Shown here: piece after piece, positions 1,567 through 44,782 of the stretch
How the letters are laid out: the number at the start of each line of letters is the position of its first letter
Position numbering within the stretch: the stretch's first letter is position 1
NCBI GenBank assembly: GCA_965203905.1
Contig: CBDBDQ010000005.1
Coordinates: 2,432,001-2,496,000 of the forward strand
Length of the DNA: 64,000 nt
Reading direction: 5' to 3'
From: Spirochaetia bacterium
GTDB taxonomy: Bacteria; Spirochaetota; Spirochaetia; SZUA-6; Bin103
The notes under the pieces: model-generated
What the model saw: the letters and a program-made list of their open reading frames with translations, nothing else
Databases searched by the model: none
Told to the model about the DNA's origin: nothing
Made by a program: the position numbers and the translations under genes

Positions 1567-1582
1567 GATGGGCGGCGGATCG

Positions 1583-2140: not shown

Positions 2141-2253
2141 CGCCCGCGACGGCCTTGACCGCAGTGGGGGGCGGCAGGATACTCCCGGCAGCAACCGGCG
2201 CGGTGGCCCACCGCCACGGCGCCAGGACGATGAAGAAAACGAGGTAATTCGAA

Positions 2254-3141: not shown

Positions 3142-3165
3142 GGCCGAGCGCGCTCGGAGGGGGCG

Positions 3166-4212
3166 GTGCGGGTCGAGGCGAACGCCCCTCTGGCCGCCCG
3201 CAACACGCTGCGGGTGGCGGCCACGGCGCGCTACCTGGTGCGCGTCGCCGGCACCGCATCCGCGGCCGTGGCGCGGGAGCTGGAAAAACTGCTCGCCGAG
3301 CCGCGCTTCCGCGGCCTGCCGCGCCTGGTGCTGGGCGGCGGCAGCAACGTCCTGTTCGCCGCCGACTTCCCCGGCGTCGTGATCGTGCCGCAGGCCGCTG
3401 GCGTCGAGATCGACGAGACTGCCGAGTCCGTGATCGTGAGCGCGGCCGCCGGACACGACTGGCACCGGCTGGTGGAGTTCACGGCTGCGCGCGGCTGGGG
3501 CGGTCTCGAGAACCTGAGCCTGATTCCCGGTGCGGTGGGCGCCGCGCCGATCCAGAACATCGGCGCCTACGGGGCGCAGCTCTCCGACGTGTTCGTCGAC
3601 CTGGAGGCGGTACCGCTGGACGGCGGTGAACCGCGTACCATGGACGCCGAAGCATGCGCGTTCGGCTACCGGGACAGCGTGTTCAAGAAAGCCCTGCGCG
3701 ACAAGATGCTGATAACCCGGGTGCGGCTGCACCTGCACAAGAGGCCGCGGCTGAACCTCGAATACGCCGGCGTGCGCGGGGAGCTTGCCAGCATGGCGGT
3801 GACCGAGCCGACGGTGGCCGACGTGAGCCGGGCGATCATCCGCCTGCGCCGCCGCAAGCTGCCCGATCCGGATTCACTCCCCAATGCCGGTTCCTTCTTC
3901 AAGAACCCGGTGCTCGCTCCCGACCACTACGCTCAGGTACGGGAGCGCTTCCCGCACCTCGCCGGAGTGGCGGTGGAGGGTGGCCACAAGGTCCCGGCGG
4001 CGCAGTTGATCGAGGCCTGCGGGCTGCGCGGCCGCCGCTTCGGGCGCGCCGGCGTGGCCGAACGCCACGCCCTGGTGCTGGTCAACCACGGCGGCGCCAG
4101 CGGCGCCGAGCTGCTCGCCGCCGCGGACGCGGTGGAGGAGGCGGTGTTGGAGCGTTTCGGCGTCCGCCTGGAGCGCGAAGTGCGCGTAGTCGGCGCCGAG
4201 GAGGAAGCCTGA
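3166..4212 (+). CDS. murB: UDP-N-acetylmuramate dehydrogenase
   Basis: LGGGSNVLF, GLENLSLIPGAVGAAPIQNIGAYG, FGYRDSVFK, PNAGSFFKNP, HALVLVN, LEREV. Confidence 0.96.
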   Translation: MRVEANAPLAARNTLRVAATARYLVRVAGTASAAVARELEKLLAEPRFRGLPRLVLGGGSNVLFAADFPGVVIVPQAAGVEIDETAESVIVSAAAGHDWHRLVEFTAARGWGGLENLSLIPGAVGAAPIQNIGAYGAQLSDVFVDLEAVPLDGGEPRTMDAEACAFGYRDSVFKKALRDKMLITRVRLHLHKRPRLNLEYAGVRGELASMAVTEPTVADVSRAIIRLRRRKLPDPDSLPNAGSFFKNPVLAPDHYAQVRERFPHLAGVAVEGGHKVPAAQLIEACGLRGRRFGRAGVAERHALVLVNHGGASGAELLAAADAVEEAVLERFGVRLEREVRVVGAEEEA

Positions 4213-4325
4213 TGGAACAGCAACCAACCTCTCCGGAGGGCTCTCGGCGTCACCCTCCAAACCGCGCCTGAACGACGTTTACGAATGGTGGCGGCAGGTG
4301 CCGTGGATTCCTCTTCAGGTCTGTG

Positions 4326-7480: not shown

Positions 7481-7705
7481 GTCAGTCCCCCAGTCTGCCG
7501 GCAGCGCGTCCGTACCTCGCCGGAACGCCGTCCAGGGCGCGATCGGAGTGCGGCGGGTTCCGGCTCGACGAGTATAAACGTATGGGCCCGAAGATCGGAA
7601 ACAGCCGTGGCCCCATGGCACCATGCAGCTCGAGGACCGGGACGCGCCATTCATGAGATTCTGGTACCGGCCGCGAGCTCTCGATCGCGATGAGGAGGCA
7701 GGTTG

Positions 7706-8965
7706 ATGGAACAGGAATTGCCGCGTCTGGCACGTTTTCGGCGTCCCCTGCCGAGCGCCGCCCTGGCCGATGTGGGAGCGGCCGTGCAGCAGGCGCTGAC
7801 CGACACGTTCAGTTCCGCCGACGTGGCCGGGCGACGCGTCGCGGTCGGCCTGGGCAGCCGCGGTGTGGCCAACTACGCCCTGGTGGCGCGGCGCACCGTC
7901 GACTGGCTGCAACGCCGGGGCGCGCAGCCGTTCATCGTGCCGGCGATGGGCAGCCACGGCGGCGCCACCGCGGCCGGGCAGCGTGAAGTGCTTGCCGGCT
8001 GGGGAATCACGTCCGAATCGATGGGCGTGCCGGTGGACGCCACCATGGCGGCGGTGGAGTTGGGCAGCGTCGGCGACCCGGCGGTACGGGTGTTCATGGA
8101 CCGGAACGCCTGCGCTGCCGACGCCGTGCTGGTGGTCAATCGCGTCAAGCCGCACACCGACTTTCACGGACCGGTGGAGAGCGGCCTGATCAAGATGGCG
8201 GTAATCGGACTCGGCAAGCGCGCCGGCGCGGAGGCGATCCACTTCCACGGCGTGTACGGGCTGGCGCACCTGATCCGGCCGGCGTTCGACGTGGTGCTGG
8301 CCTCGGGCAAGCTGCTCGGTGGCGTGGCGCTGGTGGAGGATGGCCGTGAGCAGACGGCGGCGGTGCGGGCGGCGCGCGCCGCCGACATCCCGGCCCGCGA
8401 GGCGGAGTGCCTGGCACTCGCTCGCCGCAGCATGGCCGCCCTGCCGCTGGAAGAGATCGACGTGTTGGTGCTGGACGCGATCGGCAAGGAGATCAGCGGC
8501 ACCGGCATGGACACCAACGTGGTCGGCCGCATCGGCATCGCCGGCGTCGCCGAGCCGCAGTCGCCGCGGGTGCGCCGCATCGTGGTATTGGGGCTGACCG
8601 AGGCCTCGCACGGCAACGCTCTGGGTATCGGTCTGGCCGACGTGACCACGCGCCGCTTCCAGCAGCAGGTTGACCAGGACGTCACCAACGCCAACGTGCT
8701 CACCAGCACCTTTCTGGAGCGCGGCCGCATGCCGCTGGTGGCTGCGAACGATGTCGAGGCGGTGCGCTGGGCCCTGCACACGTGCGGTGCTGCCGCGCGC
8801 GACGCGGTGGTGGTGCGGATCCGCAACACGCTGGCTCTGGAGACCCTGCTGCTCAGCCGGCCGGCGGCGCAACGCGCCCACGCCGCGCGGGTCCCGCTTA
8901 CCCGGGAGGGCGACTACGAACCGCCCTGCACCGCCGGCGGCCAGATCGTTCCCTGGCGAGAGTGA
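7706..8965 (+). CDS. LarA-superfamily (lactate racemase-like, putative nickel-pincer) protein
   Basis: GSRG, PFIVPAMGSHGGAT, NRVKPHTDF..ESGL.KM..IGLGK, GKEISGTGMDTNVVGR; RBS GAGGAGG. Confidence 0.75.
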   Translation: MEQELPRLARFRRPLPSAALADVGAAVQQALTDTFSSADVAGRRVAVGLGSRGVANYALVARRTVDWLQRRGAQPFIVPAMGSHGGATAAGQREVLAGWGITSESMGVPVDATMAAVELGSVGDPAVRVFMDRNACAADAVLVVNRVKPHTDFHGPVESGLIKMAVIGLGKRAGAEAIHFHGVYGLAHLIRPAFDVVLASGKLLGGVALVEDGREQTAAVRAARAADIPAREAECLALARRSMAALPLEEIDVLVLDAIGKEISGTGMDTNVVGRIGIAGVAEPQSPRVRRIVVLGLTEASHGNALGIGLADVTTRRFQQQVDQDVTNANVLTSTFLERGRMPLVAANDVEAVRWALHTCGAAARDAVVVRIRNTLALETLLLSRPAAQRAHAARVPLTREGDYEPPCTAGGQIVPWRE

Positions 8966-9031
8966 ATTGGGGGTTGCCCATCCTCGGTTATCGAATTCCC
9001 GGTATGCTTGGTAACAACGTGAGGTGGAGCA

Positions 9032-9253
9032 ATGCTTGATTCGCCGGATTCCATGGTGATGAAAATCGGAGAAGCTGCCGGCGAGATCTGGCGCGCCCTC
9101 GACAGCAGTGGCACGGAGCTGGACGTGTCGCAACTCAGGACCCGGACCAGACTGCGTTCCGACCGGCTGCACCAGGGTATCGGCTGGCTGGCGAGAGAGG
9201 ACAAGATCGAGCTGGTGATTGAGGGGAGGATCACGCGGATTTGGCTGAAATGA
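9032..9253 (+). CDS. DUF2582-like small winged-helix protein
   Basis: IGEAAGEIWRAL...GIGWLAREDKI pattern; RBS GAGGTGGAG. Confidence 0.8.
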   Translation: MLDSPDSMVMKIGEAAGEIWRALDSSGTELDVSQLRTRTRLRSDRLHQGIGWLAREDKIELVIEGRITRIWLK

Positions 9254-9293
9254 CGCTGCTGAGCAACCACCTGCCCGCGGCAAGGGGCGGGCC

Positions 9294-10028
9294 ATGAACG
9301 TACTCGTGGTCGATATCGGCGGCTCCAAGGTGAAGATCAGGGTCACCGGTGAGGAGCGGCGACGAGCCGCACCGTCGGGACCGGAGATGACGGCGACCGA
9401 GATGGCCGAGACGGTCGGGAAGCTGGCACTGGGGTGGCACTACGATGTCGTTTCGATCGGTTTTCCGGGGCCGGTGCTGGATGGCAAGGTCCTGAAGGAG
9501 CCGCGGAATCTGGGACCCGGCTGGGTGGGTTTCGACTTCGTGGAGGCGTTCGACCGTCCGGTGAAGGTGATCAACGACGCGGCGATGCAGGCGCTCGGCG
9601 GCTATCGGGGCGGGCGCATGCTGTTCCTGGGGTTGGGCACCGGTCTCGGCTCGGCGATGGTTTCGGGGGGCACGGTGCTGCCGATGGAGTTGGCTCACCT
9701 GCCGTACAAGAAGGAGATGACCTTCGAGGACTACGTCGGCCGGCGCGGTCTGGAGCGGCTGGGCAAGAAGAAGTGGCGCAAGGAGGTGGCCGCCGTGGTG
9801 GCGTGTCTGCGCGCCGCCCTGGTATCCGACTACGTCGTCCTCGGCGGCGGCAACGCCACGCTGCTCAAGGAGCTGCCTCCGGCCACCCTGTTCGGTCCCA
9901 ATACCAACGCGTTCCTCGGAGGTTTCCGGCTATGGGAGTCGGCAACGGCAAGGTCACGCCGTGACGCACCGGCTTTCCCGCCGCCAGCGTCACCGCTGCC
10001 ACCAACGGGTCAAGGAGATACCACATGA
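9294..10028 (+). CDS. ppgK: ROK-family polyphosphate glucokinase-like sugar kinase
   Basis: VDIGGSKVK, INDAAMQA, LGLGTGLGSA, ELAH, LGGGN. Confidence 0.8.
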   Translation: MNVLVVDIGGSKVKIRVTGEERRRAAPSGPEMTATEMAETVGKLALGWHYDVVSIGFPGPVLDGKVLKEPRNLGPGWVGFDFVEAFDRPVKVINDAAMQALGGYRGGRMLFLGLGTGLGSAMVSGGTVLPMELAHLPYKKEMTFEDYVGRRGLERLGKKKWRKEVAAVVACLRAALVSDYVVLGGGNATLLKELPPATLFGPNTNAFLGGFRLWESATARSRRDAPAFPPPASPLPPTGQGDTT

Positions 10029-11116
10029 CGAGATTGCATGAGCTGGCCGACCTCGGCCAGGCGGTCTGGTTCGATTTCATTCGGCGTTCGTTCACCGAGT
10101 CCGGCAAGCTCGGGGACCTGATCGACCGGGGCGTGCGCGGGGTCACTTCGAACCCCACCATCTTCGAGAAGGCGATCGCCGGCAGCGCCGACTACGACGC
10201 GGACCTGCGGCGGCTGATCGACGTCGGCCGGTCGCTGGACGAGATCTACGAGACCCTGGTGGTCGAGGACATCCGCGCGGCCGCCGCCCTGTTGCGCCCG
10301 CTGTACGACGCCACCGGCGGCGGCGACGGCTACGTGAGCCTGGAGGTCAACCCCAATCTGGCCCACGACACCGACGCGACCATCGAAGAGGCGCGCCGTC
10401 TGTTCGCCCTCGTGGCGCAGCCCAACGTGATGATCAAGGTGCCCGCCACTCCGGCCGGCGTGCCCGCGATCAAGGCGCTGATCGGCGAGGGGATCAACGT
10501 CAACGTCACCCTGATCTTCTCGCTGGCCCAGTACGAGGCGGTAGCGGAAGCCTACGTCGCCGGGTTGGAGCGCCTCACGGTCGCCGGCGGCGGTCTCGAC
10601 ACGGTGGCGTCGGTGGCATCCTTCTTCGTGAGCCGGGTCGATACTGCCGTGGACGCCGCCCTGGCGGAGGCCGGCAGCCAGGAGTTGCAGGGCAGGATCG
10701 CGATCGACAACGCCAAGGTGGCCTACGCCCGCTTCCGCGAGCTGTTCAGCGGCTCCCGCTGGCAGGCCCTGGCCGCGCGCGGAGCGCACCCGCAGCGTCC
10801 GCTGTGGGCCAGCACCGGTACCAAGAACCCGGCGTACTCCGACACCCTGTACGTCGACAGCCTGATCGGCCCGGACACCGTCAACACCGTGCCGCCCGAT
10901 ACCCTGCAGGCGTTCCTCGATCATGGCCAGGTTGCCGCCACCATCGATACCGACCTCGACGGGGCGCGCGCCCGCCTGCAGCGCCTGGCGGCGCTGGGCA
11001 TCGACCTGGACGCGATAGCCGGGGAGCTGCAGGATGCCGGGGTCGCCTCCTTCACCGAGTCGTTCACCAGCCTGATGGCCGGCATCGGCGCCAAGCGCGA
11101 GCAACTGCTGGTATGA
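10025..11116 (+). CDS. tal: Transaldolase
   Basis: GVTSNPTIFEKA, GYVSLEV, NVMIKVPAT, NVTLIFS, SFFVSRVD, LWASTGTKNP. Confidence 0.95.
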   Translation: MTRLHELADLGQAVWFDFIRRSFTESGKLGDLIDRGVRGVTSNPTIFEKAIAGSADYDADLRRLIDVGRSLDEIYETLVVEDIRAAAALLRPLYDATGGGDGYVSLEVNPNLAHDTDATIEEARRLFALVAQPNVMIKVPATPAGVPAIKALIGEGINVNVTLIFSLAQYEAVAEAYVAGLERLTVAGGGLDTVASVASFFVSRVDTAVDAALAEAGSQELQGRIAIDNAKVAYARFRELFSGSRWQALAARGAHPQRPLWASTGTKNPAYSDTLYVDSLIGPDTVNTVPPDTLQAFLDHGQVAATIDTDLDGARARLQRLAALGIDLDAIAGELQDAGVASFTESFTSLMAGIGAKREQLLV

Positions 11117-11138
11117 ACGGAGCGACCGACCTCGAGCC

Positions 11139-13178
11139 GTGACGGAGGCTCGCGCGATCGCTCTGGGGCGGGCCGACTGCGGCTGCTTCGAGCGCGCAAT
11201 CCGCCGCGAATGGCTGGTGACCAACGGCCTCGGCGGCTACGCGGCGGGCACCGTGGGCGGGATCAACACGCGCCGCTATCATGGTCTGCTGGTCACGGCG
11301 CGGCAGCCGCCGCGGCAGCGCATGCTGGTGCTCGCCAAGGTCGACACCTGGGCCGCCTGCGGAGCGGAGCGCTATCCGCTGTTCGCCAATGAGTTCGGTG
11401 ACGGCACGATCGACCCGCACGGCTACCGCTACCTGGAGTCGTTTCGCCTCGAAGATCTGATCCCGGTCTGGGAGTACGCGCTGGCCGACGCCCGTCTGGA
11501 GCAGCGCATCTGGATGGTGCACGGGCACGATACCGTGCACGTGAGCTATACCCTGGTGCGCGCCACCCGCCCGCTGGCGCTGACCGCAACCCCGCTGGTC
11601 GCCGGTCGCGACTTTCACGCCCACGTGCGAGGCGGCCGCGAGATGGCGAGCGGCGCGATCGCCGGGGGCGTGTCCGTGGACACCGGCACCGACACCGGTC
11701 CCTGCCGGATCGTCGTCGATCACGGCCGGTTCCATCAGCGTCCGGAGTGGTACTGGAACTTCAAGCATCGCGTGGAAGAGCGGCGGGGACTGGACAGCAG
11801 CGAGGATCTGTTCGCGCCGGGGTACTTCGTCTGCGAGCTGGAACCCGGTGCCACCGTCACGCTGACGTGCTCGCTGGAGGAATCTGCGGCCACCGGCGGC
11901 GCGTTCTCGCTGGCCACCGAACGCCGCCGGCAGGCGCACCTGGTGCCGGCGTGGGCGGCGGCAGCACCCGGCTGGGTGCAGCGCCTGACGCTGGCGGCCG
12001 ACCAGTTCGTGGTGGGCAGCGTGCGCGCCGGCGACGCCGCTCCCACGCCCGGTCCGGCGGCGCCGGGGAGCACCGTCATCGCCGGCTATCCCTGGTTCGG
12101 CGACTGGGGCCGCGACACCATGATCGCCCTGCCGGGGCTGACCCTGACCACCGGCCGGCACGCGCTTGCCGCCGCCATCCTGCGCACCTTCCGGCGTACG
12201 ATCGACCGCGGCATGCTCCCCAACCGGTTGCCGGAGCGGGAGCACGAGGTGCTGGAGTACAACACCGTGGATGCCGCGCTGTGGTACGTGCACGCGATCC
12301 ATCAGTACCTGCGCCACAGCGGCGACCTGGCCCTGGTCGAGGAGCTGTTTCCCGCGCTGGTCGAGGTGGTCGAGTGGCACCGGCGCGGTACCCGCCACGG
12401 CATTCGCGTCGACGCGCAGGACGGCCTGCTGTGCGCCGGCGAGCCGGGGGTACAGCTCACCTGGATGGACGCCATGATCGGCGACTGGGTGGTGACCCCG
12501 CGCATTGGCAAACCGGTCGAGGTCAACGCCCTCTGGCACAACGCGCTGCGCGTGATGGCCGAGCTGGCGGCGCGCCTGGGCGATGCCGTAGCGGGCGCCG
12601 GCTACCGCGCCGCTGCCGACCGCACCGCCGCCAGCTTCCGCCGGCGCTTCTGGTACCCCGCCGGCGGCTATCTCTACGACGTGATCGACGGTCCCGAGGG
12701 TGAGCCGGAGGCGGACGGCACGCGCTGCGATCGGCGGCTCCGGCCCAACCAGCTGTTCGCGGTATCGTTGCCCTTCCCCCTCCTGAACGAGGGCCAGGCG
12801 CAGGCGGTGGTCGACGTCTGCGCGCGCCGGCTGTGGACCTCGTACGGCATGCGCAGCCTGGCCGACTCCGATCCGGACTACGTCGGCCGCTACCGCGGCG
12901 GGCCGCTGGAGCGCGATGCCGCCTATCATCGGGGAACCGTGTGGGGATGGCTGCTGGGGGCCTTCGCCTGCGCCCACTACCGCGTGTACCGGGATCCGGC
13001 GGCGCGGGACTTGCTCGCTCCCATGGGACAGCATCTGGCCGACGCCGGGGTCGGCTCCATCAGCGAGATTTTCGACGCCGACCCACCGCATACTCCGCGC
13101 GGCTGCTTCGCGCAGGCCTGGAGCGTGGCGGAGGTGTTGCGCGCCTGGAAAGAAGTGGGAGACGAGGGAGAGACTTAG
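11139..13178 (+). CDS. Glycogen debranching enzyme (amylo-alpha-1,6-glucosidase, archaeal-type GDE)
   Basis: EWLVTNGLGGYA, RRYHGLL, IAGYPWFGDWGRDTMI, QLTWMDA, RPNQLFA, QAWSVAE. Confidence 0.92.
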   Translation: MTEARAIALGRADCGCFERAIRREWLVTNGLGGYAAGTVGGINTRRYHGLLVTARQPPRQRMLVLAKVDTWAACGAERYPLFANEFGDGTIDPHGYRYLESFRLEDLIPVWEYALADARLEQRIWMVHGHDTVHVSYTLVRATRPLALTATPLVAGRDFHAHVRGGREMASGAIAGGVSVDTGTDTGPCRIVVDHGRFHQRPEWYWNFKHRVEERRGLDSSEDLFAPGYFVCELEPGATVTLTCSLEESAATGGAFSLATERRRQAHLVPAWAAAAPGWVQRLTLAADQFVVGSVRAGDAAPTPGPAAPGSTVIAGYPWFGDWGRDTMIALPGLTLTTGRHALAAAILRTFRRTIDRGMLPNRLPEREHEVLEYNTVDAALWYVHAIHQYLRHSGDLALVEELFPALVEVVEWHRRGTRHGIRVDAQDGLLCAGEPGVQLTWMDAMIGDWVVTPRIGKPVEVNALWHNALRVMAELAARLGDAVAGAGYRAAADRTAASFRRRFWYPAGGYLYDVIDGPEGEPEADGTRCDRRLRPNQLFAVSLPFPLLNEGQAQAVVDVCARRLWTSYGMRSLADSDPDYVGRYRGGPLERDAAYHRGTVWGWLLGAFACAHYRVYRDPAARDLLAPMGQHLADAGVGSISEIFDADPPHTPRGCFAQAWSVAEVLRAWKEVGDEGET

Positions 13179-34918: not shown

Positions 34919-36802
34919 CTATTTCACCGTCGTGTCGGCGCCATCCTCGGTGCTGGCGACACTGGCGCTGACCTCCGTGACACCGCCGTCCTCGGCACTG
35001 TCACCGTTGCCGCTGCCGTCCGTGACTGCGCCGTCCCCGGTGCTGCCACCGTTGCCGCTGCGGTCCGTGCCTGCCCCATCCTTGGCCCCACCGTCCCGCG
35101 TGACGTCGAGCGCTTGCGTCAGGCCGCGGACGCTCGACGGGTCGAGTCCGAGTTCGCTGAGCAGCGTATCGAGCAGGGGCGCCTGCGCGCGATACCGCAG
35201 CGCGCTGTTGACGATCTGGTCGGCGAGATTGCCGCCGCCATCCACAGCCCCGGAAGCGGCGCCGTTGCCGGCCAGGCCGTCGACCTGGAATATCTTGATG
35301 CCGTCGATCCGCTCCATTGGCTTCACGCTCTGGCGGATGATGTCGGGCAGGTGTTCAATCAGTGCCATGCGTACCTGCATGGAGATCTGCTCGTCGGAAA
35401 GCAGATTGTCAGCCTCGTGTGCTCTGCGCTTGCCTTCGGCGTCCACCGCGTACCTGCGCTCCGCCGCGTTCGCCTGCAGGACCTCTGCGTCGGCGATGCC
35501 CTGAGCCCCGATCCGCTGCTTGTCGGCTTCCGCTTGCGCGGTCGTGCGTACGGCCTCCGCTCTGTCGAGCGCGGCACGTTTTTCCGCTTCGGCGGCCACC
35601 TCGATGGCAATGGCTTCCCTCTCCGCGGCCTTGCGGGCATCGACCAGCTCTACCTGCTTGGTGCGCTCGGCGACCTCCACATCGCGCGCCGTGCCCACCC
35701 GTTCTTCCTCACGCACCGCCGAGCTGCGCGCCTGGTTCGCCGCGCTCTCGGCCTCGGATTGCGCCTTCGACCGTTCGGCGACCGCGATGGTGCGGTCCTG
35801 GTCGGCAAGTTCGATGGTCTTCCTCTGTTCGATCCGTGACGTCTCGACCAGTCGATCGCGTTCGATCTCGCGGTTGCTCACCGCCTGTTGCCTGGCGATG
35901 CGTTGTTCCTCCACGGTACGTTCGGCGTCGATATTGGCGATCTCCACCTGCCGCTTGGCCTGAATCTCGGCTTCCTGAGCGTCGCGGTTCTTGGATGCCT
36001 CCTCGATGGCAATTTCGGCGCTCTGGTCCGCCTTGCGGATCGCGATCTCTCGTTCCTGGGCGAGCTGCGCATATTGCTGGTCGCGCTCGATGTCGAGTTT
36101 CAGGCGTTCGGCGCCCAGGTTCTTCTTGCGCACCTCCACCTCGGTGTCCTGTTCGATCTCGTTGCGCGTCTTGCGGCGGGACTCGATGGCCTCGGTCAAG
36201 CGCGTGAGGCCCTCTGCGTCGAAGGCGTTCTTGGGGTTGAAGTGCTCCACGCTCGTCTGATCGAGGCCGGTGAGCGACACCGACTCCAGCTCGAGACCGT
36301 TCTTGAGCAGATCCTCGGACACCACCTGTTGCACCTTCTGCACGAAGTCGACCCGTTTCTCGTGCAGTTCCTCCATTGCCATCTCGGCGGCCACGGCGCG
36401 TAGCGCATCGACGAACTTGCCCTCCACCAGCACCTTGAGCTGATCCGGCTTGGTGGTCTTCAGGCCGAGAGTCTGCGCCGCGTTGGCGATCGATTCGGCA
36501 GTGGGTTTGGCGCGTACGTAGAACTCCGCGGTAACGTCGACGCGCATGCGGTCATGGGTGATCAGCGCCTGCTCGTTGGCACGTCTCACCTCCAGCCGCA
36601 GCGTGTTCATGTTCACGGGAATCACCTCATGCAGAATCGGCAGCACCAGGGCCCCGCCGTTGATGATCACCTTCTGACCGCCCATTCCGGTGCGCACGAA
36701 GGACACCTCTTTGGAGGCACGCCGGTACAGGCGGGCCGTAATCAGGCCGAGGGCCAGCAACGCCACTACGACGATGCCGACGAGAATCAGTATGTCGGTC
36801 AT
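34919..36802 (-). CDS. Flotillin/SPFH family protein (YqiK-like)
   Basis: N-terminal TM, FVRTG.GG, LITHDRMRVDV.AEFY, NGLELESVSL, long E/A-rich coiled coil. Confidence 0.92.
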   Translation of the reverse strand: MTDILILVGIVVVALLALGLITARLYRRASKEVSFVRTGMGGQKVIINGGALVLPILHEVIPVNMNTLRLEVRRANEQALITHDRMRVDVTAEFYVRAKPTAESIANAAQTLGLKTTKPDQLKVLVEGKFVDALRAVAAEMAMEELHEKRVDFVQKVQQVVSEDLLKNGLELESVSLTGLDQTSVEHFNPKNAFDAEGLTRLTEAIESRRKTRNEIEQDTEVEVRKKNLGAERLKLDIERDQQYAQLAQEREIAIRKADQSAEIAIEEASKNRDAQEAEIQAKRQVEIANIDAERTVEEQRIARQQAVSNREIERDRLVETSRIEQRKTIELADQDRTIAVAERSKAQSEAESAANQARSSAVREEERVGTARDVEVAERTKQVELVDARKAAEREAIAIEVAAEAEKRAALDRAEAVRTTAQAEADKQRIGAQGIADAEVLQANAAERRYAVDAEGKRRAHEADNLLSDEQISMQVRMALIEHLPDIIRQSVKPMERIDGIKIFQVDGLAGNGAASGAVDGGGNLADQIVNSALRYRAQAPLLDTLLSELGLDPSSVRGLTQALDVTRDGGAKDGAGTDRSGNGGSTGDGAVTDGSGNGDSAEDGGVTEVSASVASTEDGADTTVK

Positions 36803-37811: not shown

Positions 37812-39494
37812 GTGGGAGACGTGAGCGACACGCTGGTCCGCCTCGTGCGCGAGGCGGTGCAACAGGAGGTGGAGGTGCCGCTGTCCAGACCACCGGACAG
37901 CGCCATGGGCGACTACGCGGTGCCCTGCTTCCGGCTGGCCCGCGAGGTGGGCACGCCCCCGGTGCCGCTGGCGCAACAGATCCGCGACCACCTCCGGCAG
38001 CGCGACCTGGCGGCGTTGGGCATCGCCGGGGTCGAGGCACACGGACCCTACCTGAACGTATTTCTGGCCAAGGGCGACCTGGCGGAGCGGGTGATCGGCG
38101 AAATCCTCGAGGCGGGCGCCGGCTACGGAGCACGTGGCACCGGACTCGGCAAGCGTGCGCTGGTGGAACACACCAGCATAAATCCCAACGCGCCGCCGCA
38201 CCTGGGCCGCGCCCGCAACGCCTGGATCGGCGACACCCTGGTACGCCTGCTGCGCTTCGAGGGGTACGCCCTGGAGGCACGCTTCTTCGTCAACGACGTG
38301 GGCCGCCAGATCGCGCTGCTGGTCCTCGGGGTCGGCGACCGCCGTCCCGACTTCCACGAGTTGTTGGAGATCTACGTTGCAACCAACCGGCGCCTGGAGC
38401 AGGACGCGGGGCTGGAACGCGAAGTGAACCTGCTGCTGGAACGGCTGGAGAGCGGCGACCCGGAGCCCCGCGCCGCCTTTCGGCGCGTGGTCGAGATCTC
38501 CGTGCACGGCATGCGCGAGCTGTTCGGTGACGCGGGCGTGCGCTACGACCGCTTCGACTACGAGTCGGACTACCTGACGCCGGAGCGCCACCGGCAGATC
38601 GTGGACGAGCTACGGGCCACCGGCAAGCTGTTCGAGGACGAGCACGGCCGGCTGGTGCTCGACCTGGAGGGCTTCAGGCTGCCCTCACGCAACCCGGTGC
38701 TGGTGATCACCCGCGGCAACAAGACCTCGCTCTACGTGCTGCGCGACATCGCCTACACCCTGGACAAGATGGCCGCCGCCTCCGATCTCAACCTGGTGGT
38801 GCTGGGCGAAGACCAGAAACTGTATCACCGGCAACTCCAGGCAGCCCTCAAGCTGCTGGGATCGGCTGCCCCCGACCCGGTGCATTACAGCTTCGTGCTG
38901 TTGGGCAAGGGCTCGATGTCCACCCGCCAGGGCAACCTCGTGCTGTTGGAAGAGTTCGTTGCCGAGGCCAAGCGCAAGGCCAGCGCCGAGTTGGGCGCGC
39001 GCGGCCATGCGGACGACCCCGCGGTGGCGCGGGCGGTGGCGTACAGCGCGCTGAAGTATTCGTTCCTGAAGGTCGCCAACGACAAGCAGGTGCTGTTCGA
39101 CTGGGACAAGGCCATGGCCTTCGAGGGAGAGAGCGGCCCCTACCTGCTCTACAGCCACGCCCGCATCTGCTCCATTCTGCGCAAGTACGGCAAGCCGCTC
39201 CCCGCCACCGCGGAGTTCGCCGTGCTGGAGGCCGGCGAGGAATCGGAGTTGCTGAAGCTGCTGGCGGAGTTGCCGGATCAGGTCGCGCGCGCGCTGCGGG
39301 TGCGCAGCCCGCACGTGATCGCCGGGTACACCTTTGCCGTGGCGCGGCAGTGCTCCACCTTCTATCATGCCTGCCCGATCCTGCAGGCGGCCTCTCCGTT
39401 GCGCGAGGCGCGGTTGCTGCTGGCGGCGGCGACGCGTCAGGTGCTGGCCAACTGCCTCGGCCTGATGGGAATCGACGCGCTGGAGCAGATGTAG
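37812..39494 (+). CDS. argS: Arginine--tRNA ligase (archaeal-like motif set)
   Basis: GDYA, GPYLN, EHTSINPNAPPHLGRARN, NDVGRQ, MSTRQG, GESGPYLLYSHARI.SI, FYH.CPIL, terminal EQM. Confidence 0.95.
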   Translation: MGDVSDTLVRLVREAVQQEVEVPLSRPPDSAMGDYAVPCFRLAREVGTPPVPLAQQIRDHLRQRDLAALGIAGVEAHGPYLNVFLAKGDLAERVIGEILEAGAGYGARGTGLGKRALVEHTSINPNAPPHLGRARNAWIGDTLVRLLRFEGYALEARFFVNDVGRQIALLVLGVGDRRPDFHELLEIYVATNRRLEQDAGLEREVNLLLERLESGDPEPRAAFRRVVEISVHGMRELFGDAGVRYDRFDYESDYLTPERHRQIVDELRATGKLFEDEHGRLVLDLEGFRLPSRNPVLVITRGNKTSLYVLRDIAYTLDKMAAASDLNLVVLGEDQKLYHRQLQAALKLLGSAAPDPVHYSFVLLGKGSMSTRQGNLVLLEEFVAEAKRKASAELGARGHADDPAVARAVAYSALKYSFLKVANDKQVLFDWDKAMAFEGESGPYLLYSHARICSILRKYGKPLPATAEFAVLEAGEESELLKLLAELPDQVARALRVRSPHVIAGYTFAVARQCSTFYHACPILQAASPLREARLLLAAATRQVLANCLGLMGIDALEQM

Positions 39495-39517
39495 GCGGAA
39501 CTGGTCGGCGAATTCGA

Positions 39518-39601
39518 TGCCGGCGCTCGGACTCGAACCGAGACGGTGTTGCCACCACCAGATTTTGAGTCTGGCATGTCTACCAATTTCATCACACCGG
39601 C
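39518..39601 (-). tRNA. tRNA-Leu (CAA)
   Basis: Reverse complement GCCGGTG..TGGTAGAC..CCAGA-CTCAAAA-TCTGG, long variable arm, GGTTCGAGTCC, CGCCGGC-A; CCA not encoded. Confidence 0.96.
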
Positions 39602-39616
39602 TTGGTAGGCCGTTCA

Positions 39617-39646
39617 ACACTAAGGATTCCTTGGGCCTCCTGTCAA
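39617..39646 (-). promoter_or_regulatory. Sigma70-type promoter of tRNA-Leu
   Basis: TTGACA-N18-TAGTGT just upstream of the tRNA 5' end. Confidence 0.6.
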
Positions 39647-39782
39647 TTGGTGGCAGGTCGATCAGGTCGATCGATGCAGCGATTCCCGATGAACGCCCGC
39701 TGGTAGCGCCCCTTGTCTGATAGGTGGAGATGGGCTGATAGGCTGAGATTGGCGTGAGTGCGGGCTCGTGTGCAATGCGGGA

Positions 39783-40295
39783 CTACCGGCTTGGCCTAAC
39801 GAGATGATCCAACCGATTGGAGACCTCGTGTTGAGGCAGGAAGACCGTGGCGTCGTCTTGCCAGGTCTTTAGCGCATGGATCAGCAGCGATCTGGCGCAG
39901 CCTCCGGCTGCGGCCAGTTCGTCGACGATCCAAAGCACACCGTGCACGCGCAGGCCGCTGTCGGTAGCGACCCTACGGAGCAGAGCGTCGCCGGTTAGCA
40001 GGATGCCGCACTGAGTGAGTGCCGTGACGATGCATAGGCTATCGTTGGCGGAAAGGGCGGGATGTCGCTGTTTGAGTGCGAGGGCTTGAGCGACTTCGTC
40101 TGGTGCCAAGTCGTGAGTGATCATCCCGGCATCGTCGAGCTGTCGCCACTGCCCATAGGAGAAATCAAGGATTTCGGACTCCCGCACAGGCAGCGGGACG
40201 ACGAACCGGTACGGCAGATTGCAGAGCACTTCCAGTAGACCTCCTTTGCGGAGGTCGATGAGGCAGGAAGCGTCGTTGACGACGACGCGCGTCAT
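39783..40295 (-). CDS. PIN-domain nuclease (VapC/DUF3368-like)
   Basis: VVVNDASCLIDL, V..E, LS.ND, LLTGD..LR, VHGVLW; ATG overlaps the upstream stop (ATGA). Confidence 0.85.
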   Translation of the reverse strand: MTRVVVNDASCLIDLRKGGLLEVLCNLPYRFVVPLPVRESEILDFSYGQWRQLDDAGMITHDLAPDEVAQALALKQRHPALSANDSLCIVTALTQCGILLTGDALLRRVATDSGLRVHGVLWIVDELAAAGGCARSLLIHALKTWQDDATVFLPQHEVSNRLDHLVRPSR

Positions 40296-41371
40296 TCAGT
40301 CGTCGGACCGCTGATTTCTCGCTCGACGGAGTCGAGGGTCTGGTTGAGAAGCGCAGCGGCACGCACGGGCGAGATCAGCCCTTCGCCAACGGCGCGTGCG
40401 ACCAAGCGCTTGAAACGTCGGGGCTTTTCGAAGGCCGCGAACCCGTGGTCGGGGCGGATAGGTTCGGGTTCCGTCTTGCGCCAGGGGCGCGCGAAAGTCG
40501 CGAATGCCTGCTGGACGGTGGCAGGAGGCAGGACACCGACCTGCCCGAGGCGCATCAGCATGGTCGCCGCCGACACGCCGTAGGTGTGCTTGAGCCGGAT
40601 AGTCTCGTAGTAGGTAATGCGGCGACGGGCGGCACCGACTTCCCCCAGGAGACGCTGACGTGGAACGAGAAAGGCACCAGCGAAGCGATTCATCGCCGTC
40701 TCAAGCGTTATTGCCGGGTTGCCGGTGGAGCGGATGACCCTGTGTGCGAGCTCGTGGGCAAGGGTGAAGCGTTTGCGCTCGACATTGATCCGGTTCGAGA
40801 CGACGACCGCCTCGGCGACCGACCTGCCACCCCGGAGCACGTGGCACGCCAAGCCATTGATGCTCTCGGGAAGATCATCCACGACTACCTTGATGCCCTT
40901 GTCTTCAAGGAGTTCGCACAGGCTGGGAATGGGATCCATGCCAAGACTCCATGCGTCGCGGAGCTCGTCGGCTTTGTTGTCGATCTGTACTTCAGCCGCG
41001 ACGCTGTCGCAGCGGCGACCCTCGGCCCAATCGACGGTTGCCGGCATGTCGAGGATGTCCTCGATTGCCAGGTAACGCTCGAGGTTGTCTATCAAGATCG
41101 CCTCGGCCTTCGCCCGGTCGCGAGCAGAGGCTTTGGAATGCTTGCGAAACTCCAGCCCGTCGAGGGTCTCGACCTGCGCGCTCATAAGGAAGTCCAGTGA
41201 CACGTTGAGGGTCTTTCCGAGCGCGACCAGCACGGCCGACGAGGGCAGCATCTTGCCTGCCTCATATTTGCTGATGGCCTGAGCCGTGACCCTTGGGGTC
41301 ATCTGCTCTGCGAGTGACCGCATGGATAAACCGGCCCGTCTGCGGGCGAGCCGGAGTCGTTGTCCAAACAT
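40292..41371 (-). CDS. XRE HTH fused to ImmA/IrrE (M78) zinc metallopeptidase
   Basis: GQRLRLARRRAGLS..LA....TAQAISKYE.G HTH; RKRFTLAHELAH (HExxH), E...NRFAGAFLVP, YGVS. Confidence 0.93.
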   Translation of the reverse strand: MFGQRLRLARRRAGLSMRSLAEQMTPRVTAQAISKYEAGKMLPSSAVLVALGKTLNVSLDFLMSAQVETLDGLEFRKHSKASARDRAKAEAILIDNLERYLAIEDILDMPATVDWAEGRRCDSVAAEVQIDNKADELRDAWSLGMDPIPSLCELLEDKGIKVVVDDLPESINGLACHVLRGGRSVAEAVVVSNRINVERKRFTLAHELAHRVIRSTGNPAITLETAMNRFAGAFLVPRQRLLGEVGAARRRITYYETIRLKHTYGVSAATMLMRLGQVGVLPPATVQQAFATFARPWRKTEPEPIRPDHGFAAFEKPRRFKRLVARAVGEGLISPVRAAALLNQTLDSVEREISGPTTE

Positions 41372-41490
41372 GCGCTACCCTCCGTCATTCCCCTGAATGA
41401 TAACCTTACAGGATGGACGTTGAATAGATCGTTGCAAAGTAAGGACTTATGTTCGTATCGATCGCAGACGGAACGGGACACGCGAAGCTT

Positions 41491-41528
41491 GGTTGACAGA
41501 TCATTGAGATATAATGATATTGTAAACC
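41491..41528. promoter_or_regulatory. Palindromic operator overlapping a sigma70-type promoter of the Ubl operon
   Basis: GGTTGACA-G-ATCATT-GAGATAT-AATGAT-AT-TGTAAACC; contains TTGACA-N17-GATATT. Confidence 0.65.
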
Positions 41529-41584
41529 TAAGGTTGATGCAACGCGCCAGCGCCGATAGCTGAGGCCTCGTATATGGACGTGGT

Positions 41585-41863
41585 GTGTCGGATAGGAGAC
41601 GAGAGTCGGAGGAGACTGGAGTGGTTACGTACGAATTCAAGGTGAACGGTGAGACGTTATTCTCAGATCAGCAGGCGGTGGACGCAGCGGTGCTGTTGCG
41701 AACCGCGTTCGCCGGCAAGGCTATTGGTGAGGATCCGGACAAGACCGGGTATGTGCTGAGGGTGCCCAACTCGGACGTGACGTTTGTGTCGGGGGAAGTG
41801 GTGGAACTCGACAAGTACAACGTATTTCGAGCGGTCCCGAAGAAGGGTGCACCGTTCGCATGA
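41585..41863 (+). CDS. Ubiquitin-like beta-grasp protein (multi-ubiquitin-domain type)
   Basis: YEFKVNGE / helix AAVLLRTA / YVLRV / GEVVEL / VFRAV pattern with free tail PKKGAPFA; first gene of an E2/E1 operon; exact start uncertain. Confidence 0.7.
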   Translation: MSDRRRESEETGVVTYEFKVNGETLFSDQQAVDAAVLLRTAFAGKAIGEDPDKTGYVLRVPNSDVTFVSGEVVELDKYNVFRAVPKKGAPFA

Positions 41864-42285
41864 GCAGGAACTCGGTGCGGATGGCCGCTGAACTCGTTGA
41901 ATTGGGCTATCGCCCAAGTCCGTTCACGGCGCCTCAGGAACAGGGCGGAGCCGATGGAGTCAGGTTCGAGTACCGGATCGAGAATGGCAGTCGCGAAAAA
42001 GACACCGTGACCTTGGCGGTGGCCGTCCACGAAGACGAAGGGGAGTGGCCCGAAGTGGCACCGCACTGGGTGTACCTGTCGCCGCCGGATGATGTTCTGG
42101 CGCAGCAGGTGAAGGGGGCGCAGCCACCGGGAGTTGTCGCGAAACACGAATGCGAGAACGGTCAGGTATGGATGGCGATCAGCGCCCCGCCGAGCGACTT
42201 TTGGGACCAAATCGACGCACAGGACGGCAAGAACATGAGGACCTATCTAAACAGCCACATCCGAAGAATCTGGAGCATGCGTTGA
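41860..42285 (+). CDS. Prokaryotic E2/UBC-like protein
   Basis: Helix plus 3 strands, WPEVAPHWVYL (Y/W-P-x-x-x-P), WMAISAPP, W and C-terminal helix; ATGA-coupled to Ubl. Confidence 0.65.
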   Translation: MSRNSVRMAAELVELGYRPSPFTAPQEQGGADGVRFEYRIENGSREKDTVTLAVAVHEDEGEWPEVAPHWVYLSPPDDVLAQQVKGAQPPGVVAKHECENGQVWMAISAPPSDFWDQIDAQDGKNMRTYLNSHIRRIWSMR

Positions 42286-43781
42286 AGCATCGAGTTGTTC
42301 TGCGAGAAGTGCTCCATCGTCAACTCGCGGAGCACCTGCTTAGCCGTTTCCAGGACGGGGGACGCCAGGAGGAGGCTTGCTTGGCGCTGTGGCGGCGGGG
42401 GGACGGGTTCAACCGCTATACGGGGATTCTGTGCGAAGTCGTCCTGCCGGACGACGGTGATCGAGATCTGCACGGCAATGTCACGGTGCACGGAGGATAT
42501 TTGAACCGCGTTTTGGATCGCGCGCTCATGGCGAAGGCGGGGGTGGCGGTGCTTCACAGCCATCCTGGGCCTGGCTGGCAGGGGCTGAGCACCATGGACG
42601 ACGATACCGAGCGCAACATCATTGTGCCATTCATTCGAGAGACGGGGTTGCCGCTGCTCGGACTGACAATCGGCTCAGACGGTGTTTGGAGCGCTCGATT
42701 CTGGCAAGAGTCGCGACGTGGCCGCGTTGCGCCCGTGCAATGCACAGACGTGCGGCGGGTCGGGCCGCGCCACACTGGATCGGATTGGCCTCCTGACGGG
42801 CACCAACCGTACGCGCGCCGTCCAAGCTTGGTGCGGACAGTTGACAGTTGGGGGCTGGATGCGCAGGAAAGACTGGCTCGGACGCGCATCTGTGTGGTAG
42901 GCGCGGGGAGTGTCGGCTCGATCTTGCTCGAGTGCCTGGCGCGCACTGGTTTTGAGGAGATCACGATCATTGACCCTGACTCTGTCGAGGAAAGGAACCT
43001 GGATCGTCTGATCTACGCGGACCGACACTGCCTGGGTCTGCGTAAGGCGGAGGTGGCGGCGGCCTATGCGCGCAGGGTCGCCACCGCGCGCCGTCCAGTC
43101 ATTCGGCCCGTTCCATTGTCGATCCGCACAGAGAAAGCGTACCGGTTGGCGGCCGACGCCGACGTCATCGTCTGCTGTGTCGACAACGCGGAGGCGCGCG
43201 AGGTCTTGAATCACATCGCTTACGCGAACTGCCTTCCATTACTCGATGGCGGGGTTCTGGTGGAGTCGAGAGAGCGTCTACTGTCGGCGAAGTGGTCCGT
43301 TCATCTGGTTGGACCTGACATGCGTTGCCTGCGTTGCCGCGGTCAATACACAAGCAGTGATGCACGAGACGAGCGGTTGGGTATCAGGCGCGGTGGACGA
43401 TACGTCAACGATGGCGTTGAGGACGGTCCGGAGCCCGGCCAGAACACGATCTCTTTCTGCAACGTCGTGGCAGCCGAGGAGACAAGGATGCTTGTGCGTT
43501 ACTTGATCGGGGAGGATTGGTGGCACGACAGTGCCGCTACTGCCGGTCAGTGGTCGTTCGAACACCGGTTCGTAGAAGCAGAAACCGAGCCGTTTGAGCA
43601 TCCGGGCAGATGCGTCGAGAGCTGCGAGTTTGCACATATGCGCCTCGGACTCGGCGAGAGTGGGCGACCGAAGTACCCGTTCGCCGACGAGACATTAGAA
43701 GACTGGCGCAGGCGTGTGATGCGCTGGTACCGGCACGTTCGTATGAAGGTGGGCCGTGCGGTTGCAGGAGTATGCGCTTGA
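42282..43781 (+). CDS. JAB/MPN peptidase fused to ThiF/E1 adenylyltransferase
   Basis: TTG start overlapping the E2 stop, with GGAG RBS; QEE..HSHPGPGWQGLSTMDD (JAMM); VVGAGSVGS, IDPDSVEERNLDR, CCVDN, CLRC, CVESC. Confidence 0.88.
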   Translation: MKHRVVLREVLHRQLAEHLLSRFQDGGRQEEACLALWRRGDGFNRYTGILCEVVLPDDGDRDLHGNVTVHGGYLNRVLDRALMAKAGVAVLHSHPGPGWQGLSTMDDDTERNIIVPFIRETGLPLLGLTIGSDGVWSARFWQESRRGRVAPVQCTDVRRVGPRHTGSDWPPDGHQPYARRPSLVRTVDSWGLDAQERLARTRICVVGAGSVGSILLECLARTGFEEITIIDPDSVEERNLDRLIYADRHCLGLRKAEVAAAYARRVATARRPVIRPVPLSIRTEKAYRLAADADVIVCCVDNAEAREVLNHIAYANCLPLLDGGVLVESRERLLSAKWSVHLVGPDMRCLRCRGQYTSSDARDERLGIRRGGRYVNDGVEDGPEPGQNTISFCNVVAAEETRMLVRYLIGEDWWHDSAATAGQWSFEHRFVEAETEPFEHPGRCVESCEFAHMRLGLGESGRPKYPFADETLEDWRRRVMRWYRHVRMKVGRAVAGVCA

Positions 43782-44089
43782 CCGTGTGCCATGCTGCGGC
43801 GCGCCGCAGCTGCGCGTTCGTAGCTGCGGAAGCAGCGCTCATCCGTGGCATCGGGGATGGACGGAGTTCTACCGGGTTTTCACGGAGAGTGACACAGCGC
43901 GATGCGCAGTCCGGTGGTGTCGGCGACGTCACCGCGGCCCTAAGGCGTACCTCAAGCGCATCCCAGCGCCGCCGTATGCGCTCGTCGAACAACCGGATCC
44001 GGCTCAGACTATGGTCTTGACCGCTTCGGACCAGAATAACTCTTATCAGAGAGACCGTGCGGGCAGCCGGCCGAACCTGGATCGGGGCG

Positions 44090-44782
44090 TCACTCCGGGC
44101 CGACGGTGGTGCCTGCATACGACGCGCCGTCGATGATGCGGTGCAGGTTGGTCAGGTCGCTGCCGGTGACCACCAGGGTCAGCCCCAACTCGCCGGCGCG
44201 CATGGTTGCGATCGGATCGAACGGCGCACTGTAGCCCGGCGACCAGCGTTCCCCCGTGAGGCCCTGCAACTCGACCCAGGAGAGGTGGTCGTATGCGCGC
44301 GCGTCAGGGTCGCCGCGCGGGTCGGCGCTGTAGACGTGGCCGACTTCCGACAGCTTCACCACGCGGTGCGCGCCCAGGCGCTCGGCAATGACCACGGCGT
44401 CGTAATCGTGGGAGAAGCCGGGCTTCCAGCCCGCCGCCACCAGCACCGGTGCCCGCAGCTCGGCGACCGTGGTGGGGTCGGTTACCACTTCGTCCGGAGC
44501 CAGGTCGGCGAACAGCCGCTTGATCAGCTCGGCGTTCAGCCGGGTCGCGGCGATGCCGATCCAGTCGGCCGCGGCGTCGTCGGCGGGCCGGGCCAGCGCG
44601 CGGTAGGCTGACTGGTAGCGCCGCGCCGGGTCGCCGCCTCCGCACACCACGACGAAGCGCCGGTCCGGGTGCGCGGCCACCTGGCTTCTCACCGCAGCGC
44701 AGAACTCTCCCACGAACTCGGTAGCCACGGCGCCGGGGGCAATGAGCGATCCACCGAGAGAGATGATCCAGACGCTCGGCAC
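44090..44782 (-). CDS. pyrH: Uridylate kinase, archaeal/spirochaetal type
   Basis: ISLGGSLI, VCGGG..ARRY, DWIGIAATRLNA, GWKPGFS.D.DA, VYSADP, PFDPIA, GT.V. Confidence 0.92.
   Translation of the reverse strand: MPSVWIISLGGSLIAPGAVATEFVGEFCAAVRSQVAAHPDRRFVVVCGGGDPARRYQSAYRALARPADDAAADWIGIAATRLNAELIKRLFADLAPDEVVTDPTTVAELRAPVLVAAGWKPGFSHDYDAVVIAERLGAHRVVKLSEVGHVYSADPRGDPDARAYDHLSWVELQGLTGERWSPGYSAPFDPIATMRAGELGLTLVVTGSDLTNLHRIIDGASYAGTTVGPE

Follow-up and report, generated by a model that had tools for sequence, protein, structure and literature searches.

We describe a compact five-gene cassette in the genome of a Spirochaetia bacterium (assembly GCA_965203905.1), found in a stretch of 64,000 nucleotides (nt) of contig CBDBDQ010000005.1 (positions 2,432,001 to 2,496,000) that is called the window below. 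Positions 39783-43781 of the window hold five open reading frames (ORFs), confirmed at these coordinates, in two divergent and translationally coupled operons. One operon encodes a ubiquitin-like protein (Ubl), an E2-like protein and a JAB/JAMM peptidase fused to a ThiF-type E1 domain (JAB-E1); the other encodes a fusion of an XRE helix-turn-helix (HTH) domain with an M78 metallopeptidase (XRE-M78) and a PIN-domain protein. The block is a variant of the Type I Bub ubiquitin-like conjugation system that lacks BubE and is joined to an HTH-M78 protein of the Rosmer or CapH/CapP kind and to a putative PIN toxin. We give a probability of roughly 0.7 to the reading that the cassette follows an overall Bub-like scheme, with two divergent operons under a shared control region that provide conjugation and a regulated PIN protein, and the genomic context suggests a role in defense or stress response. 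The cassette is more than a chance assembly, because it is a clean insertion by comparison with genomes of the same genus and the whole unit is found again at 14 of 18 related loci.

Operons of this kind were defined as type 6e by Iyer et al. in 2006, with a polyUbl, an "inactive" RWD-like E2, a JAB-E1 and a metal-binding protein (PMC1779556). Ye et al. renamed them Bub and showed an oxyester chemistry in which a loop Tyr of the E1 and a Ser of the E2 carry the Ubl (PMC11601596). An earlier note on this DNA had proposed a conjugation operon of three coupled genes, as a variant of the Bub class and not a wholly new one, and this placement is borne out by the homology of the E1 to BubCD and by the BubA-like and BubB-like folds of its partners. 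The coupling itself can be read directly: the Ubl stop and E2 start overlap in ATGA (41860-41863), and the E2 stop and E1 start in TTGA (42282-42285), with GGAG 7 nt upstream. On the other strand the XRE-M78 stop and PIN start overlap in ATGA (40292-40295), and with the Pfam and PADLOC matches given below this agrees with the back-to-back arrangement described before, an HTH plus HExxH metallopeptidase with a coupled PIN gene.

The JAB-E1 protein

The best solved relative of the JAB-E1 protein is Citrobacter BubCD (9ea4, E = 1.5e-22), where residues 3-328 of the query align with residues 7-315 of the chain and so span both domains; a profile search against BubCD gave 4.9e-25. Pfam identified the ThiF domain (1.4e-35) and did not call the JAB domain. 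The candidate JAB residues are E30, H92-S-H94, S103 and D106. Of these, E30, H92, H94 and D106 match the catalytic set of BubCD (Glu, His, His, Asp) in the alignment, and R242 falls on its adenylation Arg. These JAB catalytic residues and the adenylation Arg are invariant in 10 sequences drawn from two clades. The motifs on which the proposal of a JAMM-E1 fusion had been built were all located: GxGxxG at residues 207-212, D231-x-D233 followed by N239-L-D-R242, and the Cys pairs C349xxC352 and C444xxxC448; D301 was confirmed as well. The longest ORF for this gene, starting at 42150, overlaps the E2 gene; the coupled TTG at 42282 gives 499 amino acids (aa), the length of most relatives.

Models of other E1 families match in the adenylation domain. 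PADLOC models of E1-E2 (Cap2) proteins match its core (residues about 194-320) with E values of up to 1.4e-15, and NCBIfam ThiF/MoeB models match at 1e-22 to 1e-16, all far below their cut-offs. Beyond the adenylation core, the only Cys residues that are invariant in both clades, which are 37-40% identical to each other, are C349, C352, C444 and C448. A four-Cys set of this kind binds zinc in MoeB/ThiF. The remaining C393 is not conserved, and 2 Tyr residues, Y356 and Y374, are invariant across the two clades. The extreme C-terminus of the E1 (window 43680-43781, residues about 467-499) is basic and hydrophobic, with the pattern W..R...R..R....R.IA.L; in the 37-40% identical clade its character is kept but not its sequence, and this tail could be an amphipathic helix.

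The E2-like protein and the Ubl

The earlier note had staked its reading on the first gene folding as a beta-grasp and the second as a UBC domain, and the AF2 models of both proteins have the expected fold. The E2 model (predicted local distance difference test score, pLDDT, 92.4) was compared with solved structures in a VIA search, which is independent of Foldseek. Citrobacter BubB (9eav_D) came first, with Z 8.5 and a root mean square deviation of 3.8 over 118 of 128 residues, followed by UBC E2s, Atg3, UFC1 and the E2 domain of Cap2 at Z 5-7.8. A profile search of the whole library with the E2 family returned 103 proteins at E <=1e-3, 36 of them at <=1e-10. Many of these are long repeat proteins that we took as spurious (the one that was checked is a cadherin-repeat protein), and the credible matches are E2s of ~125-145 aa together with six Ubl-E2 fusions of 201-286 aa.

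Across 37 E2 sequences the invariant residues are P64, P68, H69, S108, W115 and H133, with no Cys among them. The sole Cys of the window's E2, C98, is replaced by Gly in the close relatives L002 and L004. This pattern of conservation indicates an E2 that would act without cysteine-enzyme chemistry, and the conserved Tyr residues of the E1 and Ser of the E2 appear to fit the oxyester mechanism of Bub.

The Ubl model is a beta-grasp (pLDDT 81.5, with the tail residues 77-80 below 50), and its best Foldseek matches are the bacterial multi-ubiquitin proteins 8u38 (3.4e-4), 9cd2 and 9d5b and Citrobacter BubA (9ea8_B), followed by ubiquitin. The gene most likely starts at GTG 41621, giving 80 aa, and not at 41585 as had been thought, because GGAGGAG lies just upstream of this GTG, relatives have a Met at that alignment column, and most of the 120 listed relatives of the Ubl are 80 aa long, the window's own protein included. 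At one related locus (L001) the Ubl reading frame is closed further upstream of the same column. One close relative of the Ubl, P0224 (152 aa), is a tandem of two beta-grasp repeats of which the second ends in G-APFA, so the number of domains varies within this family, as has been reported for Bub Ubls.

The C-terminal G-APFA of the Ubl is invariant in 17 of 17 sequences and aligns with the G-x-TPVA linker of Ubl-E2 fusions from the same E2 family. Since the Citrobacter JAB domain is reported to cut a fusion right after the conserved Gly (PMC11601596), the natural inference by analogy is that the JAB domain of the cassette would trim APFA from the Ubl.

XRE-M78, PIN and the shared control region

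In XRE-M78, Pfam identified HTH_3 (2e-10) and Peptidase_M78 (1.3e-13). The protein matches 14 PADLOC RmrA models, the best at 4.7e-44 with residues 4-307 aligned to 5-295 of 363, and more weakly the capP (1.2e-10) and capH (1.5e-6) models; an NCBIfam spr1629 repressor/antitoxin model also matches (2.5e-23), below its cut-off. The HExxH motif of the peptidase, H206-E207-x-x-H210, is invariant even in a relative of 29% identity. The PIN protein matches PDC-S70 in PADLOC (1.6e-6) and none of the RmrT models there, and its acidic residues D8, E41, D85 and D103 are invariant in 12 intact copies.

A complex model of XRE-M78 with PIN reached an ipSAE interface score of 0.85, against 0.00 for the best control. 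This mark is reached by 116 of 157 solved complexes and by 2 of 215 mismatched pairs, counts that are rough here as our own alignments were used. Between runs, 97% or more of the contacts agree, and the partner has a pLDDT of 90. In the model, PIN residues around all four acidic positions face residues 41-66 and 328-355 of XRE-M78, which supports binding of PIN by XRE-M78 through what would be the active-site face of the nuclease. PIN looks more like a toxin held by XRE-M78, in the style of Rosmer and other toxin-antitoxin (TA) systems, than like a target of conjugation.

An alignment of 16 intergenic regions has one main conserved element, GTTGACA-N21-23-TGT(C/A)AAC, whose right arm is a perfect TGTCAAC in L001 and L003 and reads GTCAAC in L002. 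The only sigma-70-like site in 39400-44300 is TTGACA-17-GATATT (10 of 12 matches), with its -35 box in the left arm of this palindrome. The palindrome would be the operator. Between the start of XRE-M78 and the palindrome the window carries ~95 extra bases (41372-41490, alignment columns 31-125) that are absent from 15 of 15 aligned relatives.

Insertion site and genomic flanks

GC content is 0.54-0.65 within the block and 0.66-0.73 in its flanks, as the earlier note had sensed, and ARAGORN together with the identification of flanking genes confirms the location that it gave, between a tRNA-Leu and pyrH. On the flanks are argS, a gene for a PGDH-like dehydrogenase and a pyrH of archaeal type, whose match (E 8e-45) falls slightly short of the cut-off; genes for thiamine, molybdopterin or cysteine synthesis were found neither there nor in the insert. 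The PyrH protein is present in 21 of 21 related genomes. We examined nine same-genus loci around pyrH and sought the cassette genes in them by tblastn at E 1e-3; the cassette genes are absent from all nine. The tRNA-Leu(CAA) lies ~90-330 nt from pyrH in seven of these loci, and argS, tRNA-Leu, pyrH and serA are contiguous and in the window's order in six. In one genome (G414), neither the tRNA nor argS was found within 18 kilobases (kb) of pyrH.

In the nearest relative (L040, pyrH 90% identical), blastn matches cover window positions 39301-39656 and 44089-44391, and just 33 nt of the relative's own sequence separate the two matching stretches. The extra DNA of the window is therefore ~4.4 kb, 39657-44088 (Table 1). 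No integrase or transposase was found among the ORFs of this insert, and no convincing terminal repeats or att duplication around it. A different insert of ~11.8 kb occupies the place between pyrH and the same tRNA-Leu(CAA) in another genome of the genus (G415, locus L052, G415:C1:3528400-3547000, about 714-12526). Its genes include one for a methylase protein of Eco57I/MmeI type (1217 aa, with DUF7008), besides those for a sulfatase and an ABC-type ATPase. Since this genome holds a different insert there, the tRNA-Leu/pyrH junction looks like a variable hotspot in the genus. The cassette was acquired horizontally at this variable tRNA-Leu site.

Table 1. Features of the cassette and its insertion site, in window positions.
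Feature	Position	Strand	Basis
tRNA-Leu(CAA), left landmark of the insertion site	39518..39601	-	ARAGORN
Inserted block, ~4.4 kb	39657..44088	.	blastn against the empty site in same-genus genomes
PIN-domain protein, 170 aa, putative toxin/nuclease	39783..40295	-	Pfam PIN, PADLOC PDC-S70
XRE HTH + M78 (ImmA/IrrE) metallopeptidase fusion, 359 aa, putative repressor/antitoxin	40292..41371	-	Pfam, PADLOC, NCBIfam
Conserved palindrome GTTGACA-N22-TGTAAAC, divergent control region	41492..41527	.	Alignment of 16 intergenic regions
Ubl pre-protein, 80 aa, single beta-grasp	41621..41863	+	AF2 model, Foldseek
E2-like UBC-fold protein, 141 aa	41860..42285	+	AF2 model, structure search
JAB/JAMM peptidase fused to ThiF-type E1 adenylation domain, 499 aa	42282..43781	+	Pfam ThiF, BubCD match

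Outside the cassette and unrelated to it, the window encodes a 627-aa flotillin-like protein (34919-36802, minus strand; FloT model 4.8e-20, far below the cut-off) with a long coiled region rich in Ala, Glu and Arg and a tail rich in Gly, Asp and Ser.

Distribution and neighborhood of related cassettes

A search with the E1 listed 120 proteins at 63-100% identity, the 100% row being the window's own protein, called shorter at 395 aa. The related genome loci, 18 in all, come from metagenome-assembled genomes of Binatia, Thermodesulfobacteriota, Gammaproteobacteria and Alphaproteobacteria, Acidobacteria, Bryobacterales and others. All five genes are present in order at 14 of them, with full-length matches of 60-83% protein identity to the window; of the rest, L009 is cut by a contig end and L013 and L016 are remnants. 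DNA similarity between the window and the 18 loci ends at the gene block, within 39800-43782. Among 401 genomes of the window's phylum the E2 occurs in one, which is the window's own genome. The cassette has moved repeatedly between phyla. The E1 had no match in 50,697 phage records, and none was confirmed in two scans of viral contigs.

The surroundings of these 18 loci were scanned up to 3.6 kb from the cassette, which took in 122 ORFs of 100 aa or more. The flanks contain an OLD-family ATPase at 6 loci, adjoining a UvrD helicase at 3 of them in a Gabija-like arrangement, a transposase or integrase at 8, and methylase or restriction-modification genes at 4. A Schlafen/AlbA_2 protein and a DruA-like protein were also found.

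A more distant clade of metagenome relatives comprises 11 loci with E1 identities of 37-41%, and in all 11 the E2 gene directly precedes the JAB-E1 gene. Its neighborhood was surveyed through 59 of 78 listed ORFs at 5 loci, leaving out a near-duplicate locus and nine short ORFs, and includes a ThsB-TIR protein, HsdM, a methylase-HNH protein and a Schlafen protein. Three loci of this clade carry candidate ORFs of 338-398 aa w​ithout a Pfam match (L022 3907-4932, L028 8804-9997, L030 8792-9805, minus strand), which converge on the E1 gene and overlap its 3' end by ~30 nt.

Further relatives lie on plasmids: ten actinobacterial records encode an E1 at 34-37% identity, and six of these were inspected. 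An M78 gene stands beside the Ubl-E2-E1 operon in all six, divergent in five and, in the sixth, co-oriented and accompanied by a sigma factor. Fusions of HTH_3 with M78 were confirmed by Pfam in three, and a fourth (H5) is annotated like H6. The small partner gene is RelE/HigB-like in two plasmids, and in the others its family is unknown. The two operons, whose link had been seen in the window alone, thus remain associated beyond its close relatives.

Comparison with known systems

The cassette shares with Type I Bub (also 6e or 6E.1; BubA, BubB, BubCD and BubE in Citrobacter) a JAB-E1 fusion that is homologous over both domains, a beta-grasp Ubl of the multi-ubiquitin type with a C-terminal extension beyond the conserved Gly, and an E2 of BubB-like UBC fold in which a Ser, and no Cys, is invariant. 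Insertion beside a tRNA gene and association with a regulator of HTH/M78 type are common to both, and separate Ubl and E2 genes, as in the window, are listed for Type I operons in the Bub Table S1 (PMC11601596). The cassette differs in its regulator, one fused protein with a PIN gene behind it, and in the absence of DUF6527, the BubE domain.

The regulatory half resembles CapH and CapP of CBASS and other defense systems, in which HTH and M78 domains are encoded upstream of, and divergent from, the operon that they control. In those systems the repressor responds to DNA damage, its cleavage being stimulated by such damage or by ssDNA. Lau et al. describe CapH-CapP fusions in 15 CBASS systems and a DISARM operon with a vapC-like gene and a CapH-CapP fusion upstream (preprint 10.1101/2022.04.27.489752). 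The capP and capH matches of XRE-M78 are nevertheless weak when set against its RmrA match. RosmerTA, which pairs an RmrT toxin with an RmrA HTH-M78 antitoxin (Millman et al. 2022), shares with the cassette the nearly full-length RmrA match, a coupled small gene downstream and, in the model, antitoxin contacts over the PIN active site; it differs in that the PIN of the cassette matches only PDC-S70 and that the pair is tied to a conjugation operon instead of standing alone. Pairing of ImmA-type antitoxins, often with an N-terminal HTH, with PIN-like toxins has been described by Ernits et al. in their NetFlax work (PMC10440598), and DNA-damage-controlled VapC operons are the subject of a 2026 paper in EMBO J (PMC13373217).

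Bil (BilABCD) and Cap2/Cap3 of CBASS are likewise bacterial E1/E2/JAB conjugation systems in defense islands. In Bil, as described by Ye et al., the JAB protein is separate, the E2 bears a Cys, and the E1 combines adenylation domains in tandem with a Cys domain (PMC11601596). Cap2, an E2-E1 fusion, acts on a CD-NTase, and the cassette encodes none.

Several observations weigh against the Bub-like reading. Neither the Ubl nor the E2 matched anything in Pfam, NCBIfam, PADLOC or the PDB by sequence, whether as single sequences or as profiles, and Foldseek returned for the E2 model weak UEV/E2 rows (best E 0.026; TSG101 UEV, Ube2w), with BubB not among the rows shown. In the cassette E2, S108 is followed by A-P-P and accompanied by the invariant H69 and H133, whereas Type I BubB has Ser-x-His plus an Asp. 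The sequence alignment of the E1 with BubCD stops at residue 329, and the C-terminal ~180 aa (residues 320-499), which hold the CxxC...CxxxC set and the two invariant Tyr residues, had no match in the PDB at E 10. The crossover loop of the Type I E1 has no catalytic Cys and an invariant Tyr, Y370; Y356 and Y374 of the cassette lie in the unaligned region, and because the alignment ends where it does, a catalytic Tyr cannot be mapped onto Y370. The Pfam PIN match (E 1.2e-4, 23.1 bits) falls just under the gathering threshold of 23.6. Among the 18 close loci, L005 has no PIN match and its E1 match ends at residue 381, and the PIN gene is interrupted by a stop in frame in L006 and cut short in L011 and L013. 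The distant metagenome clade has PIN at none of its 11 loci and XRE-M78 at one, so that the toxin pair is an accessory of subclades. The authors of the Bub study also report that phage protection has so far not been seen (PMC11601596), a statement repeated in EMBO J in 2026 (PMC13373217).

The absence of BubE also counts against the reading. DUF6527 (PF20137) is absent from the cassette and from the window's genome, which is 98.7% complete, and none was found among the 122 flank ORFs of the 18 loci, the 59 ORFs of the 5 distant loci or 23 plasmid ORFs, while Ye et al. state that every Bub operon has BubE (PMC11601596). According to its header, the Bub Table S1 lists those operons of Millman et al. 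2022 that contain DUF6527 (PMC11601596). Six protein accessions from the plasmids do not appear in this table, which carries no weight because its entries are given as IMG gene ids. Since this census was seeded on DUF6527, the rule that all Bub operons have BubE holds by construction. We found no description of Bub-like operons lacking DUF6527 in the literature, in a search that was not exhaustive and whose coverage did not extend to subscription journals. Because BubE is absent and the E2 lacks the Ser-x-His motif, we file the cassette as a new variant and not as a member of Bub.

Of five genomes of relatives, one (G405, the source of cassette L006) encodes DUF6527, outside the cassette locus. 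It has two matches (L049 5535-7231 and L050 5768-7251), each adjoining an ORF of about 415-423 aa, and these loci may be canonical Bub operons that coexist with the BubE-less cassette. The ORF beside DUF6527 in L049 was considered as a bridge to the window's E1 and dropped, as it matches that protein over 48 residues around the nucleotide-binding motif and has no match in the PDB.

Proposed mechanism and competing explanations

Under the Bub-like reading, the JAB domain would, by homology, trim the 80-aa pre-Ubl after its invariant Gly and remove APFA, and the E1 domain would adenylate the exposed Gly. The Ubl would then pass through hydroxyl (oxyester) intermediates and not thioesters, the first on Y356 or Y374 and the second on S108 of the E2, before being attached to targets. 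The HTH-M78 protein would repress both promoters through the conserved palindrome and, as modeled, hold the PIN nuclease by its active-site face. A signal of stress or infection would activate the M78 peptidase, by analogy with CapP/CapH, ImmA/ImmR and IrrE/DdrO, so that conjugation is derepressed and PIN is released. Induction of the cassette by stress is proposed here by analogy with CapH/CapP.

A bolder version of this scheme, which we offer tentatively and consider possible rather than probable, is that Bub-like operons without DUF6527 form a third Bub type, in which conjugation is wired to a swappable toxin (PIN, RelE/HigB-like or others) by way of an HTH-M78 antitoxin and repressor. Ubl conjugation and toxin release could be two arms of one trigger, or the Ubl system could gate the toxin. 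If so, a census seeded on DUF6527 could not have seen such operons.

The strongest competitor to the Bub-like reading, which we nonetheless regard as unlikely, is that two independent modules travel together: a stand-alone Rosmer-like TA pair of XRE-M78 and PIN, and an unrelated Bub-like operon, with shared regulation being incidental. The RmrA match is nearly full-length, and RmrA-like antitoxins are reported to pair with many toxins as stand-alone systems (PMC10440598). The three-gene operon does without PIN at all 11 distant metagenome loci, and the copies with a broken PIN in L006 and L011 still have full-length matches for the other four genes. Against independence, the pair occupies the same divergent position at 14 of the 18 close loci, and an M78 gene is again divergent in 5 of the 6 inspected plasmid relatives, at ~35% E1 identity and with a differing partner. 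Moreover, the only conserved intergenic element is a palindrome that overlaps the -35 box of the Ubl operon, and a regulator placed divergently is a layout already known for CapH/CapP, including the vapC-like gene found with a CapH-CapP fusion.

A further alternative is that conjugation acts on the toxin module itself, with the Ubl being attached to PIN or XRE-M78 and thereby switching the toxin, so that the five genes form a closed circuit. In its favor, an M78 gene recurs beside the operon and is often joined by a small gene that varies (PIN in the clade of the window, RelE/HigB-like in two plasmids), and the 4.4-kb insert encodes no other candidate effector or target. We nevertheless hold this to be highly improbable: it has no direct evidence, the distant metagenome clade keeps the operon and lacks the toxin pair, the PIN-broken copies retain full-length matches for the other four genes, and Citrobacter Bub is reported to conjugate in vitro onto its own E2 and many Escherichia coli proteins (PMC11601596).

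The sub-threshold NCBIfam matches and the MoeB/ThiF-like four-Cys set could suggest that the cassette serves sulfur transfer or a cofactor pathway in the manner of ThiF/MoeB, with the Ubl as a carrier like ThiS/MoaD and no protein conjugation, but we reject this reading as almost certainly wrong given that JAB is fused to the E1 and BubCD is the best match of that protein, the UBC-fold partner is translationally coupled, the carrier ends in G-APFA and not GG, cofactor genes are missing from the insert and its flanks, and the relatives sit among defense and mobile genes instead of the sulfur-transfer or cofactor clusters that the earlier note had named as a warning sign.

Significance

Among bacterial ubiquitin-like pathways, Bub is the one least understood: its oxyester relay is known, and its targets and biological role are not. 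The cassette is a minimal form of Bub, with three conjugation genes and no BubE protease, accompanied by a regulator and a putative nuclease toxin. Such a compact unit of 4.4 kb makes it possible to study induction and conjugation side by side with a toxic output that can be measured. A clade of relatives escapes the published census, which was seeded on DUF6527. What recurs beside the operon in this clade is an M78 gene, itself accompanied by a gene that varies, a pattern that may point to the purpose of the Bub pathway.

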